A DNA stretch of 40,611 bases from an uncultured Clostridia bacterium. Lineage in GTDB: Bacteria; Bacillota; Clostridia; Christensenellales; CAG-1252. The DNA lies in the NCBI GenBank assembly GCA_946648015.1, contig CAMPCZ010000002.1, forward strand, positions 1 through 40,611, read 5' to 3'. This document shows positions 10,662-37,748 of the stretch, in pieces. Position numbers and translations under genes: made by a program. The notes under the pieces were generated by a model that saw only the letters and a list, made by a program, of their open reading frames with translations, searched no databases and was not told the DNA's origin. The number at the start of each line of letters is the position of its first letter. Position 1 is the stretch's first letter.

Positions 10662-10690
10662 TTGACTTGCCAAGGCGAGTAGTGTATTAT
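10662..10690 (+). promoter_or_regulatory. Sigma70/sigmaA-type promoter of the 27-kb plus-strand gene block
   Basis: TTGACT (10662-10667), 17-nt spacer, TATTAT (10685-10690). It is preceded by a very AT-rich, UP-like stretch (10560-10640). The -10 covers the ATG at 10689, which argues that this ATG is not the start codon. Confidence 0.65.
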
Positions 10691-10739
10691 GTTTAGGTTG
10701 TATAATGCGCGCGCTATGGGCGCGATTTTAGGTGAGAAC

Positions 10740-11894
10740 GTGAAGAGAAAAGTTTTGATTTCTATTTTAATTTTGGTCGTTGCGGCTTTTGCTGCCATGC
10801 TTTTGACCGCTTGCGGCGAGCAAGGCGACTATTCGGCTCAACTCAAAGTCGTATACGAGCTGGAGGGCGGCGTATATCAGAATACGTCTTTGCCCGTTAC
10901 GCTCTATTTCCCCTATGCCGAGGGCGAGTCGGGCACTATCGTCGACCCCATGACCCTTTCGGGCAAAGAGTTCGAGAAAGCGGGCTACGTGCTGGAGGGC
11001 TGGTATCGTGTGAAAAACGGCACCGACGAGGACGCTACCTACGACGGACAATGGCATTTCGATACCGACGTGGCCGCCGGCGGCGATACGCTCACCCTGT
11101 TTGCCAAGTGGAAGCCCGCCGTGGAGTACACTTACAACGTGGTGTATAGGGACGAAACGACGGGCAACGTCGTCAACCTCGGCTCCTATCCCGTGGCGGA
11201 GGGCGACGTTTTTGAGGATTACTTGGGGTATGCTACGCGTCGAGCGGGCTACACCAAATTGGGCTTTGTCGACGCCGAGGGCAACCCTTGGGACGCGGCC
11301 TTTACCCACCCCGGTGGCGCTTCCTCCGTGGCAGTCGACGTGTTTGTCGACTATATCGAGGGCAACTACACGTTGGTGTCCACCGCCGCCGATTTTTCGA
11401 GTGCATTGGGGCGCAACCGCAACATCTATCTGTTGACCGACGTCGACTATGCGGGTGCCAAACTCAAGAGCGCTGCTCGCTATACGGGCGTTATCGAGGG
11501 CAACGGCCATACCGTCGGCGGCTTTGTGTTGGACTACGACGCCAGCGTGGTGGTGGCCGACTACGAGGACGACAGCGCCCAAAGCTTGTACGTTTCGCTG
11601 TTGGGCGACGCCAAGGGCGCCACCGTCCGACATCTTTCGCTCGAGGGCAAGGTAACGCTTGCCTCCACCTACAGCCGTATGAGCGGTACCATCTATTTTG
11701 CGCCGCTGGCCACCGTCTGCGAGGGTAGCCGCTTCGACCAAGTGTCGGCCACCTACGTCTATGCGGTGGGCGCACTGCGCGCGGGCCTTAGCGAAAGCGA
11801 TCTGGTCATTGTGGCCGACAGACTCAGTTATCAAATGGACGGCGCCTCCACCGAGGCCGACTGTTCCGTCAATATCACCAAACAAGGAGAGTGA
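10740..11894 (+). CDS. Lipoprotein with two InlB-type B-repeats (Listeria-Bacteroides repeat) and a GLUG-like C-terminal region, 384 aa
   Basis: GTG start at 10740 with SD AGGTGA. Signal peptide MKRKVLISILILVVAAFAAMLLTAC (lipobox LTAC). B-repeat signature ...GYVLEGWY...WHFDTD...LTLFAKWKP, with a second degenerate copy. The segment YTGVIEGNGHTVGGF...LLGDAKGATVRHLSLEG resembles GLUG/beta-helix modules. Confidence 0.7.
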   Translation: MKRKVLISILILVVAAFAAMLLTACGEQGDYSAQLKVVYELEGGVYQNTSLPVTLYFPYAEGESGTIVDPMTLSGKEFEKAGYVLEGWYRVKNGTDEDATYDGQWHFDTDVAAGGDTLTLFAKWKPAVEYTYNVVYRDETTGNVVNLGSYPVAEGDVFEDYLGYATRRAGYTKLGFVDAEGNPWDAAFTHPGGASSVAVDVFVDYIEGNYTLVSTAADFSSALGRNRNIYLLTDVDYAGAKLKSAARYTGVIEGNGHTVGGFVLDYDASVVVADYEDDSAQSLYVSLLGDAKGATVRHLSLEGKVTLASTYSRMSGTIYFAPLATVCEGSRFDQVSATYVYAVGALRAGLSESDLVIVADRLSYQMDGASTEADCSVNITKQGE

Positions 11895-11896
11895 AT

Positions 11897-35800: not shown

Positions 35801-37705
35801 GTCGTTACGTCGGGCGTGGGGCTTATCGTCAAAGCGAGCGACTCCAAACAGTGGGCGGGTCGCACCTTTGCGGGTACCGTAGATGGAAAATCGGCCACCC
35901 TTTCCACCGACAATTACGAGCATTATACGTTGCGCATAGGCGGCGAAACCGTTATCGACAAACTCATTTTGAATAGCTACGTCTATGGCGCGGCCGACTA
36001 TGCGGGCGGTACGCTTACCTTGCACCACGCTGCCGACCGCAACGAAAACGCCACCTATTCCTATCGGTTCGAGTTGGATTTGGAGACGGGCACTTTCGCC
36101 TATGTTCAAAGAGACGATCTATTCGGGCGATACGCCGTGGGCAGTTCCATCTTTTTCCTCGACGGATACGGCTCGGGCTACTTCAGTGCCGACACCACCA
36201 AGTACTATTCGACCGAAATCGCCTATACGGCGACGGGTTCCGACGTGGAGATACGCTTCCTCAATACCACATCCGGTTTTGCCTACGGCAAGCGTTTGGT
36301 CTCCTACGTGCACGCTTTTGGCAACGTGCTCACCGTGTGCGAGGCCGACTACGCCCCCTTTGTGGGCACCGTGTGGGAGAATACGGCCGTCGTAGACGGC
36401 GTATTGCTACGCGTCAACAAGTTTACGGTAGGCAAAGCCGCCGCCGCTACGGCGCAAGCCGCGTTCCTTGCCGGTGTGGACGTTGTGTCCCCCTCGGGGG
36501 CTGTCGTCGACGTTGCCGACAAGGCCAACTACTTTGATTTTAGCAAGGTGAATTGGAACTTGGCGGGCTTCTATTTGGTGGAGGCCAAGGTCAACTATGC
36601 GGGCGAAGAGGTGCGCTATCCCTACGCCGTGCAAGTGTTGGAGCCTTTGTACGAGGGCAGCGACGTTGCCGTTTCGTTCGGGGCGGGCGTGCTGACGGGG
36701 TCCAACGGCCTTTTCTTCGACAAATACGGCCAAGTGCTGTTGTCCTCGGGGGACAATAGTTATCAGGGCGTCTATCACCTCACCGACGCGGGCTTTGTGG
36801 GCAAGATCAACACCGCCTCCTCGGGTCTGAGCTTGGTGGGAGAGCGCTTGCCGGGCGAGGCCGTCGTGTACAAAGTGCGTGGCACGGGCGCGTTTTCGTT
36901 CGTGGATTACTACACCACCGCGCACACGGCGGTGGCTGCCGTCGAGGGCGCGTGTTTGCGCCATATAGGCGACCTGTATGTCTTTGCGGTGTCTACGGGC
37001 GGCTTGGGCGAGATCGTACGACCCACCTTGCTCGCCGGCGCCTCCTTGGACGAGGCGGGCGCCATCTTCGACGTGGGCGGCAAGGTCTACAAATTGCTGT
37101 CTTGGGGCGATACCGCCTATGGCTTGGCCATTGCCGACGTCTACCGTGGCGCGTACGCGCTGGAGGGCGCAGACGACTTGGTGTTGGACGGCTTCGGCTA
37201 CGCTACCTTGGGCGATACCAAGGGTCGCTATCGAATGAACGGCCGTATGGTCATCTTTACGGCGGGCGGGCAGAGCACCGTGTACCGCATCAATCCCGAT
37301 ACGCACCAATACGTCGTCAGCGACATACGCCTCGACGAGTCGTTGGTGGCGGGCAAGACCTATGCGGCGCGCTACACCATCACGGGCGCCAGCGCTGCCG
37401 ATACCTATTCGGCCATCGCCACGTTGGAGTTTGGGGCGGGCGGCGTGGTCAACGTCTACTGCACGTCCTCTGCCTACGAGCAGGACACGGGGCGCAACTT
37501 CGAGGCGGTATTTGCCGCGCGCGGCGGTTCTGTGGGCACCTACTCCGTGTCGGGCACCCAGATCACGGTGCGCGTAGAGGGCTACACGTTTGTGCTTGAC
37601 GTGGTCAGTTTGGCCACGCTCAACCAACTGAGTTGCACCACAACCAACGTTTTGTCCTCGGCGTCGGGCTATTTTGCCCCCAATACCGTGTTTGGTTTGC
37701 AATAG
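32888..37705 (+). CDS. Giant lipoprotein with nine tandem Ig-like repeats and a beta-rich C-terminal half, 1605 aa
   Basis: ATG at 32888 with SD GAGGAAA; the upstream in-frame 22 codons in the ORF track overlap the previous gene. Signal peptide MKKRHLLLAVVLCLLAALVLAAC. Repeats carry the motif ...EVASYDFAALF.V..DG..V.V....V......G.Y.V...Y.G..A...V.V. Confidence 0.85.
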   Translation: MKKRHLLLAVVLCLLAALVLAACQPGATNQPEDSSSGDVVDGQQPGQPSLETVTVEAVVPRVQVSVGELATYDYTSLFRIQEGDAAVPVTGAMLSGAAGTPTLESFDVRCTYGGQSATATVSVGYASLVVDAEEELTLSIDEVAACDFAALFAIEADGVSIAVPAALVDVTAVKAAVGVYPVSLTYKGQTAVVTVRVYRPVLVEVRAGAERISLKTDEVASYDFAKVFLVTEDGKRVAWDKVQVDATEVQAAEGEYTVRCSYADHNAQYVVAVVDPRFQVSVAKDSVRLTTKEVASYDFAALFSVLREGKAVSVDPRWVVSDVEAQKGTYTYTVSVFGASASVVVNVQPYYALELVANYAAPTLALSRLDTYDYTRLFSVFVEGQAVPVTSDMLRYDYRGLSVGDSFDVTLSYQTEEESQSRTLSVAIVDEDSLVVHARDVQIFPNAPHLDFVDLFSIEQGGRSIAVQPQMIEGAVDYGTEGDYPITLTYMDVQAVATVTVRRGVVFDYPHGQVIVIQRGTDPSTYAFEEDFAVRVNGVRFDNIRPLIDIDDVDFSTEGDYEVTLTVPYNSKPKTGLSGKVTFDYYQATVVYRVLTNRYAATVRQDVVRLPVGTVAYDPLANLSVSVNDRWQTLTTNRDYVNAITTYCEVVQGVDFASVAEQQISVDVYVQGLDKDPVRLVYVLVIDSAVRLAATNATVYSGDTVHRRDLFAIQVDGEPVDVEESMIEGAMDLFCPGVYTLTLRYEGKSAVATVTVLDSNVLGTYHTVQTTIGAAATVTAVGSWEEDEWEVYDDDYYEDEDVPPVSVLDDLVIGRDAITMGERTLTTEAGVDMTSMVVVIGSERHLLTYRNGIVTLDPENRYKLAYHATKRPLMYFNSKLWRIVDAFTINSSSSGHVLTATYSGVYSIDCAQLEDKDGNRIWFVQKTLLEERSGSDYIYVNSWGEATFAGDFDKTEGASGTLVFEGENYAYVVTSGVGLIVKASDSKQWAGRTFAGTVDGKSATLSTDNYEHYTLRIGGETVIDKLILNSYVYGAADYAGGTLTLHHAADRNENATYSYRFELDLETGTFAYVQRDDLFGRYAVGSSIFFLDGYGSGYFSADTTKYYSTEIAYTATGSDVEIRFLNTTSGFAYGKRLVSYVHAFGNVLTVCEADYAPFVGTVWENTAVVDGVLLRVNKFTVGKAAAATAQAAFLAGVDVVSPSGAVVDVADKANYFDFSKVNWNLAGFYLVEAKVNYAGEEVRYPYAVQVLEPLYEGSDVAVSFGAGVLTGSNGLFFDKYGQVLLSSGDNSYQGVYHLTDAGFVGKINTASSGLSLVGERLPGEAVVYKVRGTGAFSFVDYYTTAHTAVAAVEGACLRHIGDLYVFAVSTGGLGEIVRPTLLAGASLDEAGAIFDVGGKVYKLLSWGDTAYGLAIADVYRGAYALEGADDLVLDGFGYATLGDTKGRYRMNGRMVIFTAGGQSTVYRINPDTHQYVVSDIRLDESLVAGKTYAARYTITGASAADTYSAIATLEFGAGGVVNVYCTSSAYEQDTGRNFEAVFAARGGSVGTYSVSGTQITVRVEGYTFVLDVVSLATLNQLSCTTTNVLSSASGYFAPNTVFGLQ
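33044..35160 (+). repeat. Nine tandem 70-90-aa Ig-like (DUF5011/HYR-like by pattern) coding repeats
   Basis: Repeat cores: ELATYDYTSLFRIQEGD, EVAACDFAALFAIEADG, EVASYDFAKVFLVTEDG, EVASYDFAALFSVLREG, LDTYDYTRLFSVFVEG, PHLDFVDLFSIEQGG, PSTYAFEEDFAVRVNG, a degenerate eighth copy, and VHRRDLFAIQVDG. Each ends in a ...TVTV/VVNV strand. Confidence 0.75.
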
Positions 37706-37721
37706 ACGATTTACGCAAAGG

Positions 37722-37748
37722 GCCGCACCCACGGGTGCGGCTTTTTTT
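37722..37748 (+). terminator. Rho-independent terminator ending the 27-kb gene block
   Basis: GCCGCACCC (37722-37730) pairs with GGGTGCGGC (37733-37741), followed by T7 (37742-37748). It lies 17 nt after the TAG at 37703-37705. Confidence 0.85.

Follow-up and report, generated by a model that had tools for sequence, protein, structure and literature searches.

A stretch of 40,611 nucleotides from an uncultured Clostridia bacterium (Christensenellales, CAG-1252; assembly GCA_946648015.1, contig CAMPCZ010000002.1, positions 1 to 40,611), referred to below as the window, carries a block of 12 co-oriented open reading frames (ORFs) on the + strand, at 10740-37705, in which the gene of a giant cell-envelope-proteinase-like protein is packed together with those of an Opp/Dpp-type importer and of several lipoproteins. 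The genes of this block of ~27 kb are numbered g1 to g12 in their order on the strand. Linkage of the protease to the importer is encountered in gut metagenome-assembled genomes (MAGs) in two different gene orders, and this is the strongest argument, drawn from sequence comparison, that the two may be functionally coupled. The explanation that we favor, and to which we give about an even chance of being correct, is that of an operon for protein foraging at the cell surface in an uncultured lineage of gut Clostridia, a variant of the cell-envelope proteinase (CEP) plus Opp logic. The supply of peptides to an Opp importer by a surface CEP is established in lactic acid bacteria (LAB) (PMC7783315, PMC3587842). 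An earlier note, made from the nucleotide sequence of the window, had read the block as a combined protein-capture, proteolysis and peptide-import unit; a conserved protease-importer unit was indeed recovered from other genomes, and the functional part of that reading is retained here in conditional form.

Gene order in related genomes

Related loci were retrieved with a g10 profile (A1) built from 47 full-length relatives of 33-75% identity, none of which has an assigned name. The scan of the species genomes with the single g10 sequence returned nothing relevant, and a family profile was needed. With this profile, g10 homologues were found in 110 species-representative genomes, all of them gut MAGs (human, chicken, goat, sheep, deer, rabbit and mouse). 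All window proteins were compared with 85 loci using tblastn, the gene order being judged as far as the contigs reach. About 80 species-level gut MAGs display the collinear order OppD-OppF-g7-g8-(g9)-g10-g11-g12; in these the orphan lipoproteins co-localize with the transporter and the protease, as the earlier note had proposed to check. Among the 85 loci, g8 is present in 82, g11 in 81, g12 in 78, g7 in 72 and g9 in 24. The series g1 to g8 was found collinear in about 35 genomes by an OppD scan, the OppD proteins concerned being 72-82% identical to g5. Identity to the window proteins amounts to 70-90% for OppB, OppC, OppD and OppF, about 55% for the solute-binding protein (SBP) and the protease, 44% for g10, 32-35% for g1, g11 and g12, and 27% for g9. 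The GC content of the loci ranges from 0.28 to 0.60 and their flanks are not conserved, guaA, for example, not being found upstream elsewhere. Conservation of the gene order over about 80 species-level genomes that differ in flanks and GC content marks the block as a selected unit, and the comparison indicates that the cluster is real, non-random and evolutionarily selected. The taxonomic labels of the MAGs bearing these loci (L007-L149), which are clearly of Firmicute type, are inconsistent and unreliable, and include Bacteroides, Acidiphilium, Staphylococcus sp. CAG:324, Coprobacillus, Mollicutes and Acholeplasmatales; the NCBI taxonomy, uninformative or in error for the candidate genera named, assigns Candidatus Fimimonas to Myxococcota.

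The second gene order is displayed by more distant Clostridia MAGs, whose OppD is 54-66% identical to g5 (as compared to 72-82% in the closer clade). This distant clade keeps a g1-like lipoprotein, OppBCDF and an SBP that measures about 855 aa and is 35% identical; it is devoid of g7 and g9-g12, and a gene collinear with g8 lies directly upstream of its g1-like-SBP-OppBCDF series. One extended contig of the clade encodes a 2422-aa S8-PA-fn3_5-Big_2-LRR_5 protein, 33% identical to g8 over residues 74-2406. Generic Opp relatives, with an OppD at most 52% identical, are accompanied by ordinary SBPs of 580 aa and by no protease. Since the distant clade keeps both protease and importer in another arrangement, the link between them outlasts the change of gene order. 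The ancient core, found in two arrangements, therefore comprises the protease together with OppBCDF, the oversize SBP and the g1-like lipoprotein, and g7 and g9-g12 are clade-specific additions.

A single MAG (binchicken_co370_253) carries two loci, L033, which is of type A and follows the window order, and L113, of type B, in which a protease homologue stands upstream of g1-SBP-OppBCDF-g7. This pair hints at paralogous systems in one genome, a binning artefact being also possible. In the type-B loci L113 (12595-19971) and L128 (12417-17458), the genes next to Opp on the downstream side specify surface proteins of about 1000 aa, which contain redoxin/AhpC-TSA domains and share 31% identity, and L113 also encodes a Fer4_5 plus redoxin membrane protein. 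Redoxin-domain proteins were considered as a conserved partner of Opp and rejected, as they are present only in L113 and L128 among the loci.

Protease, importer and lipoproteins

The protease gene g8 (19818-27290, + strand) encodes 2490 aa arranged as a signal peptide with lipobox, a pro-region of about 170 aa, an S8 domain with an inserted PA domain, fn3_5, Big_2, about eight blocks of leucine-rich repeats (LRR_5), a helical stalk and a C-terminal transmembrane helix. In Pfam terms, Peptidase_S8 covers residues 212-688 (E = 1.2e-38) with PA at 489-556 inside it, fn3_5 covers 724-840, and LRR_5 is found in eight stretches between residues ~1370 and 2230 (E = 4e-120). Pfam searches bore out the S8/PA/LRR assignment made from the sequence beforehand, together with those of the SBP and of OppB, OppC, OppD and OppF. 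When compared to the PDB, residues 208-880 align continuously with C5a peptidase (1.4e-64) and also match SpyCEP and a cell-envelope proteinase. The streptococcal C5a peptidases (ScpA/ScpB) and SpyCEP are the best matches of this S8, PA and fn3 portion (E = 1e-64 to 1e-51); unlike g8, these virulence proteases of 1100-1650 aa are anchored by sortase, act on narrow host targets and have neither an LRR_5 arm nor a linked importer. All of 16 homologues, drawn from the two clades, share the catalytic residues D221, H296 and S628 and the oxyanion residue N392. As judged from these alignments, g8 is a relative of the cell-envelope proteinases and C5a peptidases (MEROPS S8A, lactocepin / C5a-peptidase group) whose catalytic site is intact. 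Its LRR_5 arm is similar to the BspA-type proteins (Tannerella BspA family), but is fused here to an active-looking subtilase and a transmembrane anchor. Homologues of g8 are publicly annotated as 'leucine-rich repeat protein' (e.g. MBQ8323254.1).

The earlier description of g8 as a lipid-anchored protease could be kept in part. A lipobox is present in all 14 closer-clade sequences, whereas the L167 protein of the distant clade has a Cys-less signal peptide. The C-terminal transmembrane helix, followed by a basic tail, was found in 13 of the 16 homologues, and the last 60 residues of g8 do not contain LPXTG. The best-conserved anchor is accordingly the C-terminal helix, and not the N-terminal lipobox, which is restricted to the closer clade. 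Some 170 conserved residues separate the signal peptide of g8 from the catalytic domain, with a marginal Inhibitor_I9 match in only one orthologue (E = 0.031). The pro-region may be cleaved off, by analogy with other subtilases; the lipobox would then leave with the propeptide, and the term lipid-anchored is therefore only partly right. No PrtM/PrsA-type rotamase or peptidyl-prolyl isomerase maturase was detected by Pfam among the 12 products.

The importer is encoded upstream of the protease on the same strand. Gene g2 (11897-14635) specifies a 912-aa family-5 solute-binding lipoprotein (SBP_bac_5, 2.8e-23) with an insertion of ~250-300 aa, which aligns between residues 120 and 180 of AppA. 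The g2 family profile (A8) is closest to Bacillus subtilis AppA (5.4e-24), followed by OppA, Lmo0135, Lactococcus lactis OppA and DppA/DppE, and NikA-type nickel binders score below these peptide binders. The permeases are g3 (14681-16099), an OppB-like protein of 472 aa with a loop insertion of ~140 aa (BPD_transp_1 and BPD_transp_1_N; best NCBIfam model Opp4B, below cut-off), and g4 (16100-17248), an OppC-like protein of 382 aa with an acidic N-terminal extension (OppC_N and BPD_transp_1; Opp4C at 324.7 bits for a cut-off of 350). Two ATPases of 387 aa each complete the system, the OppD-like g5 (17251-18414) and the OppF-like g6 (18416-19579), both with ABC_tran and oligo_HPY domains; g6 has a charged C-terminal tail and clears the cut-off of NCBIfam subfamily NF008453 (416.7 vs 408). 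The component set of an Opp/Dpp importer (PepT family, TC 3.A.1.5) is therefore complete, with a family-5 SBP, two permeases and two oligo_HPY ATPases, all above the Pfam gathering scores. The earlier note had called this importer expanded, which holds for the SBP, retained at 850-1000 aa in both clades; the insertion in the extracytoplasmic loop of OppB is polymorphic, some closer-clade relatives of g3 measuring 444-498 aa and others 331-342 aa (L087-L119). That the closest solved SBPs are peptide binders is the sole indication of an oligopeptide as the possible ligand of g2-g6.

Gene g1 (10740-11894, + strand) precedes the SBP gene in both gene orders and encodes a 384-aa lipoprotein (lipobox LTAC) composed of an InlB B-repeat/Flg_new domain and of a C-terminal domain in which the motif GN(GHTI) is invariant. 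It had been described as InlB-B-repeat/GLUG-like. The first half of this description stands at the family level, the g1 family profile matching the InlB B-repeat at 1.7e-7 and Flg_new being found in 13 of 19 homologues; the window protein itself matches Flg_new (PF09479) at E = 1e-3 and 19.5 bits, under the gathering score of 27. The second half had to be dropped, as Pfam detects no Glug domain in g1 or the 19 homologues, one of which has a marginal Peptidase_M26_N match.

The protease and importer of the block are similar to the LAB couple of PrtP/PrtB/PrtS and Opp in the S8 domain with its inserted PA, the fibronectin-like domains, the helical domain and the cell anchor, as well as in the family-5 SBP lipoprotein and the oligo_HPY-containing OppBCDF (PMC7783315, PMC3587842). 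The lactococcal PrtP follows the plan pre-pro / protease(PA) / A-B / H / W / anchor (PMC7783315), from which g8 departs by Big_2 and about eight LRR_5 blocks in place of the B domain and by a C-terminal transmembrane helix (with an N-terminal lipobox) instead of LPXTG, no PrtM-type maturase being encoded in the block. Compared to LAB Opp, the SBP is ~350 aa larger and the g1, g7 and g9-g12 proteins are supernumerary. Finally, protease and importer share here one tightly packed putative operon, and are linked in two gene orders, unlike in the LAB system.

The remaining products are a small membrane protein and four lipoproteins. The former, g7 (19576-19806, + strand), is a 76-aa tail-anchored protein with no Pfam or NCBIfam match, located between OppF and the protease in 72 of the 85 loci; the motifs YVDDGHTIYNMD and KERRAAIKAA, the transmembrane segment and WLK are kept in 18 aligned orthologues. 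Lipoboxes were confirmed by motif scans in the seven products where they had been noted (g1, g2 and g8-g12); LPXTG is absent from all 12 products, as are SLH and choline-binding domains according to Pfam. The lipoprotein genes downstream of the protease, all on the + strand, had been presented as orphans without any family. This remains true in terms of Pfam for g9 (27302-27877, 191 aa, lipobox LFGC), g10 (27896-30220, 774 aa) and g11 (30252-32867, 871 aa): g10 has no NCBIfam match either, and g9 and g11 have only marginal ones, below cut-off. It does not hold for g12 (32888-37705, 1605 aa), in which tandem Big_3-like immunoglobulin (Ig) repeats precede a C-terminal region of ~830 aa without matching fold; Big_3 was found in 17 of 17 orthologues, and the g12 profile has no match in the PDB. 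In none of these families was a confident homology to an unrelated, known function encountered, and public labels across them read 'leucine-rich repeat protein' or 'hypothetical protein'.

Two of the lipoproteins could be related to each other. Alignment of the g10 family (A1) with the g11 family (A2) using hhalign extends over 628 columns (probability 100, E = 1.3e-47); g10 and g11 are ancient paralogues. Profile comparisons failed to add further members, and g9 and g12 are therefore not considered as paralogues of this pair: the g9 profile alignment covers the signal peptide region only, and g12 versus g11 is not significant (probability 52). The variable g9 is always located between the protease and g10 in the 24 loci where it occurs. 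A profile search among 1.84 billion representatives yielded only about 60 full-length g10 clusters at 50% identity.

AlphaFold2 models of g10 (pLDDT 85) and g11 (pLDDT 80, pTM 0.69) consist of N-terminal Ig-like domains followed by beta-rich domains. The predicted order in g10 is an fn3-like domain, a Big_2-like domain, two LolA/LprG-like half-barrel domains and a small alpha/beta domain. When submitted to Foldseek domain by domain, the g10 model matches LolA, LolB and ependymin-related protein (probability ~1, TMt 0.35-0.40); whole-chain matches to ROS1, Sevenless and alpha-2-macroglobulin were discarded, as their TM-score of ~0.1 reflects strings of Ig/fn3 domains. The g11 model matches LprG-PIM (probability 1.0, TMt 0.54), LolA and LolA3, and weakly TbpB and PmSLP (probability 0.3-0.9), which are surface lipoproteins binding host proteins. 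For LolA, the matches of the two models have probability 0.99 and TMt 0.33-0.40. The fold in question is an unclosed antiparallel beta-barrel whose helical plug lines a hydrophobic cavity. The resemblance to LolA, LolB and LprG (LppX-LprAFG) thus concerns model domains matching LprG-PIM, LolA-lipoprotein, LolA3 and LolB, and the lipoprotein nature shared with LprG. The g10 and g11 domains differ by being in tandem, fused to Ig-like domains within proteins of 770-870 aa, in a monoderm without Lol pathway; at the sequence level, the g10 and g11 profiles have no match in the PDB or Pfam beyond Ig-like domains.

Transcription signals and neighboring genes

A sigma-70-like promoter, TTGACT-17-TATTAT (10662-10690, + strand), had been noted upstream of the block; it was again read directly and is the best site of a scan of 9500-29000, with 10 of 12 positions matching. 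The scan returned 13 promoter-like sites versus 10.8 +/- 3.9 in shuffled sequences; since this count does not exceed the shuffles, the lone match is weak evidence by itself. In 19 of 23 loci, counting the window, the 200 nt ahead of the first gene contain a site with at least 10/12 matches. The ATG listed for g1, at 10689, shares bases with the -10 hexamer; translation probably begins at GTG 10740, which is preceded by AGGTGA and from which a classical signal peptide of a lipoprotein is read. Counted from the likeliest start codons, the successive intergenic gaps from g1 to g12 are 2, 45, 6, 2, 1, -4, 11, 11, 18, 31 and 20 nt, in agreement with the tight spacing of twelve same-strand genes reported before. 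Clear Shine-Dalgarno sequences of the AGGAG type precede g1, g2, g4 and g8-g12, whereas g3 and g5-g7 have weak ones or none. In the orthologous loci, median gaps range from -17 to 32 nt and terminator-like hairpins are rare in the internal gaps.

The block ends at an intrinsic terminator (37722-37748, + strand), also read directly, with the hairpin GCCGCACCC-ACG-GGTGCGGC followed by T7 (-31.9 kcal/mol, z = -6.7). As previously reported, no terminator precedes it: terminator-like sites are absent from the internal gaps on the + strand, and their overall counts equal those of shuffled sequences. No riboswitch or leader RNA was found in the window by an Rfam scan.

Beyond the terminator, 335 nt past g12, begins a further lipoprotein gene, g13 (38041-40611, + strand, lipobox LVAC), which is partial as it runs off the window. 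Its repeat-rich product is built of Cys-containing units of ~100 aa and has no Pfam match. In the g13 position, 63 of the 85 loci encode a giant Flg_new protein of 1900-2700 aa; the gene following g12 starts only ~70-105 nt after it in L002, L004 and L005, and a terminator-like hairpin is present within 200 nt past g12 in only 13 of 70 orthologous loci. Because this giant protein follows g12, often without terminator, the conserved neighborhood reaches past the 3' boundary set earlier. Gene g13 is a conserved downstream neighbor which, in the present genome, forms a separate transcription unit.

Upstream of the block, the opposite strand carries guaA and an aspartokinase-asd-hom-thrC/thrB operon, in which a single 755-aa ORF (6260-8527, - strand) fuses threonine synthase (Thr_synth_N and PALP) to homoserine kinase (GHMP_kinases N/C). 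An Lgt homologue (821-1609, + strand; Pfam LGT, 7.6e-14) would lipidate the eight lipobox proteins encoded downstream. It adjoins a Sulfotransfer_3-family protein (1673-2782, + strand; 1.9e-26) with no obvious operon link, and positions 1-63 of the + strand hold the 3' portion of a tRNA gene that is truncated at the edge of the window (Rfam RF00005, 41.9 bits).

Function of the block and its significance

In the protein-foraging explanation, g8 would be held at the membrane mainly by its C-terminal transmembrane helix, the helical stalk and the LRR_5/Ig arm projecting outward, and would cut extracellular protein of dietary or host origin. The released peptides would be captured by the oversize SBP g2 and imported via the dedicated OppBCDF-type transporter g3-g6, with the g1 lipoprotein as an obligatory partner of SBP and transporter. 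The closer clade would have added the g7 micro-protein, the LolA/LprG-like lipoproteins g10 and g11 and the Ig-repeat lipoprotein g12 as accessory binding or scaffold parts; the roles of these proteins, as well as that of g9, are putative. The block would be expressed as a single transcript. The promoter and terminator that bracket the tightly packed genes and the Lgt homologue in the window speak in favor of this explanation, as do the collinearity of the genes across genomes, the protease-importer link in two gene orders, the invariant catalytic residues, the homology of the catalytic region to cell-envelope proteinases and the proximity of the SBP profile to AppA, OppA and DppA.

Several points weigh against it. 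Family-5 SBPs are also known to bind nickel, haem, opines and sugars, g2-g5 score below the NCBIfam equivalog cut-offs (best models Opp4A/B/C and OppD), and the usual ligands of LolA/LprG-like folds are lipids or acyl chains, a type of binding not predicted by peptide foraging. The closest solved relatives of g8 include narrow host-factor proteases, C5a peptidase and SpyCEP. Threonine biosynthesis genes are located nearby, and an amino-acid auxotrophy is therefore not obvious; no intracellular peptidase was identified by Pfam among the block products. As regards regulation, a CodY box is missing near the promoter, a single 3-mismatch site elsewhere being at chance level, Pfam domain scans revealed no regulator gene in the block or its immediate flanks, and internal promoters may exist within the coding sequence.

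The organization of the block recalls the polysaccharide utilization loci (PULs) of Bacteroidota and the ABC-importer PULs of Gram-positive bacteria, which likewise bring together, in one orientation, a degradative enzyme, lipoproteins for binding at the surface and a dedicated importer; the occurrence of two locus types in one MAG (L033 and L113) is another common trait. Unlike PULs, the block has neither a SusC/SusD pair (none in the Pfam scan, the importer being of the ABC type), nor a glycoside hydrolase, nor a linked regulator, and its putative substrate is protein. The parallel is an organizational analogy only. A broader proposal, which we advance tentatively and consider a good deal less probable than foraging as such, is that of modular, substrate-specific 'protein utilization loci' as the monoderm counterpart of PULs, in which an ancient coupled core of membrane-anchored, LRR-bearing CEP and dedicated oversize-SBP Opp would be surrounded by lineage-specific capture lipoproteins, including a tandem LolA/LprG-like family passing hydrophobic peptides or lipoprotein fragments to the importer, several such loci per genome, with different accessory sets, being possible.

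A host-directed surface machine is the alternative that survives best, although we consider it rather unlikely. The protease would then have specific host proteins as targets (for example immunoglobulin, complement, chemokines or mucin-associated proteins). Adhesin or host-protein receptor functions would fall to the lipoproteins and to the LRR_5, Ig and Flg_new modules, and Opp would do no more than salvage or sense the products. Such a role would suit the two virulence proteases found as nearest solved relatives of the catalytic region, but the lactocepins of LAB are equally C5a-peptidase-like and yet nutritional (PMC7783315). BspA-type LRR_5, Big_2, Big_3 and the InlB B-repeat are typical of adhesins, and the weak matches of the g11 model to TbpB and PmSLP (probability 0.3-0.9) point in the same direction. 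The surface parts, at 27-55% identity, have diverged far more rapidly than the transporter core, at 70-90%, and every carrier is a vertebrate-gut MAG; however, a host range from chicken to ruminants, rabbit and human speaks against one host-specific target. In both gene orders, the protease comes with an importer that has its own specialized SBP, and this strict coupling fits product uptake as the selected function.

An involvement in envelope maintenance or lipoprotein handling is improbable in our opinion. The LolA/LprG-like lipoproteins would in that case bind acyl chains, lipoproteins or glycolipids, the protease would process or shed the surface proteins of the cell itself, and Opp would recycle peptides or cell-wall peptides. 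The domain-level structural matches to LolA, LolB and LprG favor such a role, but their TM-scores are moderate (0.35-0.54) and no membership is detected at the sequence level. Eight lipoprotein genes in a row and the Lgt homologue share the neighborhood, and recycling of murein peptides is a function of some Opp systems, the matches including MppA and OppF-type models. A 2490-aa LRR-bearing CEP would nevertheless be an odd tool for self-processing and, because the distant clade keeps protease and Opp without g10-g12, these lipoproteins cannot define the core function. Peptide signaling, in which the protease would mature an exported pro-peptide and Opp reimport the pheromone in the RRNPP manner, is very improbable: Opp importers carry pheromones in many Firmicutes and S8 proteases mature some secreted peptides, but the block contains no RRNPP regulator, short secreted-peptide gene or other regulator, and surface proteins of 2490 and 1605 aa are disproportionate to signaling.

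No description of the locus was found in the searchable literature on Christensenellales/Borkfalkiaceae proteases, peptide utilization loci or BspA-subtilisin fusions. Gut protein fermentation is usually credited to a few cultured taxa, and we know of no established feeding strategy for the abundant uncultured Christensenellales-like Clostridia. The locus is a conserved hallmark of more than 100 species of this kind, sampled from the guts of humans, poultry, ruminants, rabbits and mice, and provides as candidates a surface protease whose active site is intact, an importer with a large SBP insertion and three unannotated families (g7, g10/g11 and the C-terminal half of g12). Should the host-directed model prove true, the locus would represent a widespread commensal factor targeting host proteins. 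If the foraging model is true, the concept of utilization locus would extend from glycans to proteins in monoderms, and enrichment conditions for culturing would be suggested as well. If the broader proposal of 'protein utilization loci' is true, a large uncultured radiation of vertebrate-gut Clostridia would owe its nutritional niche to the locus.

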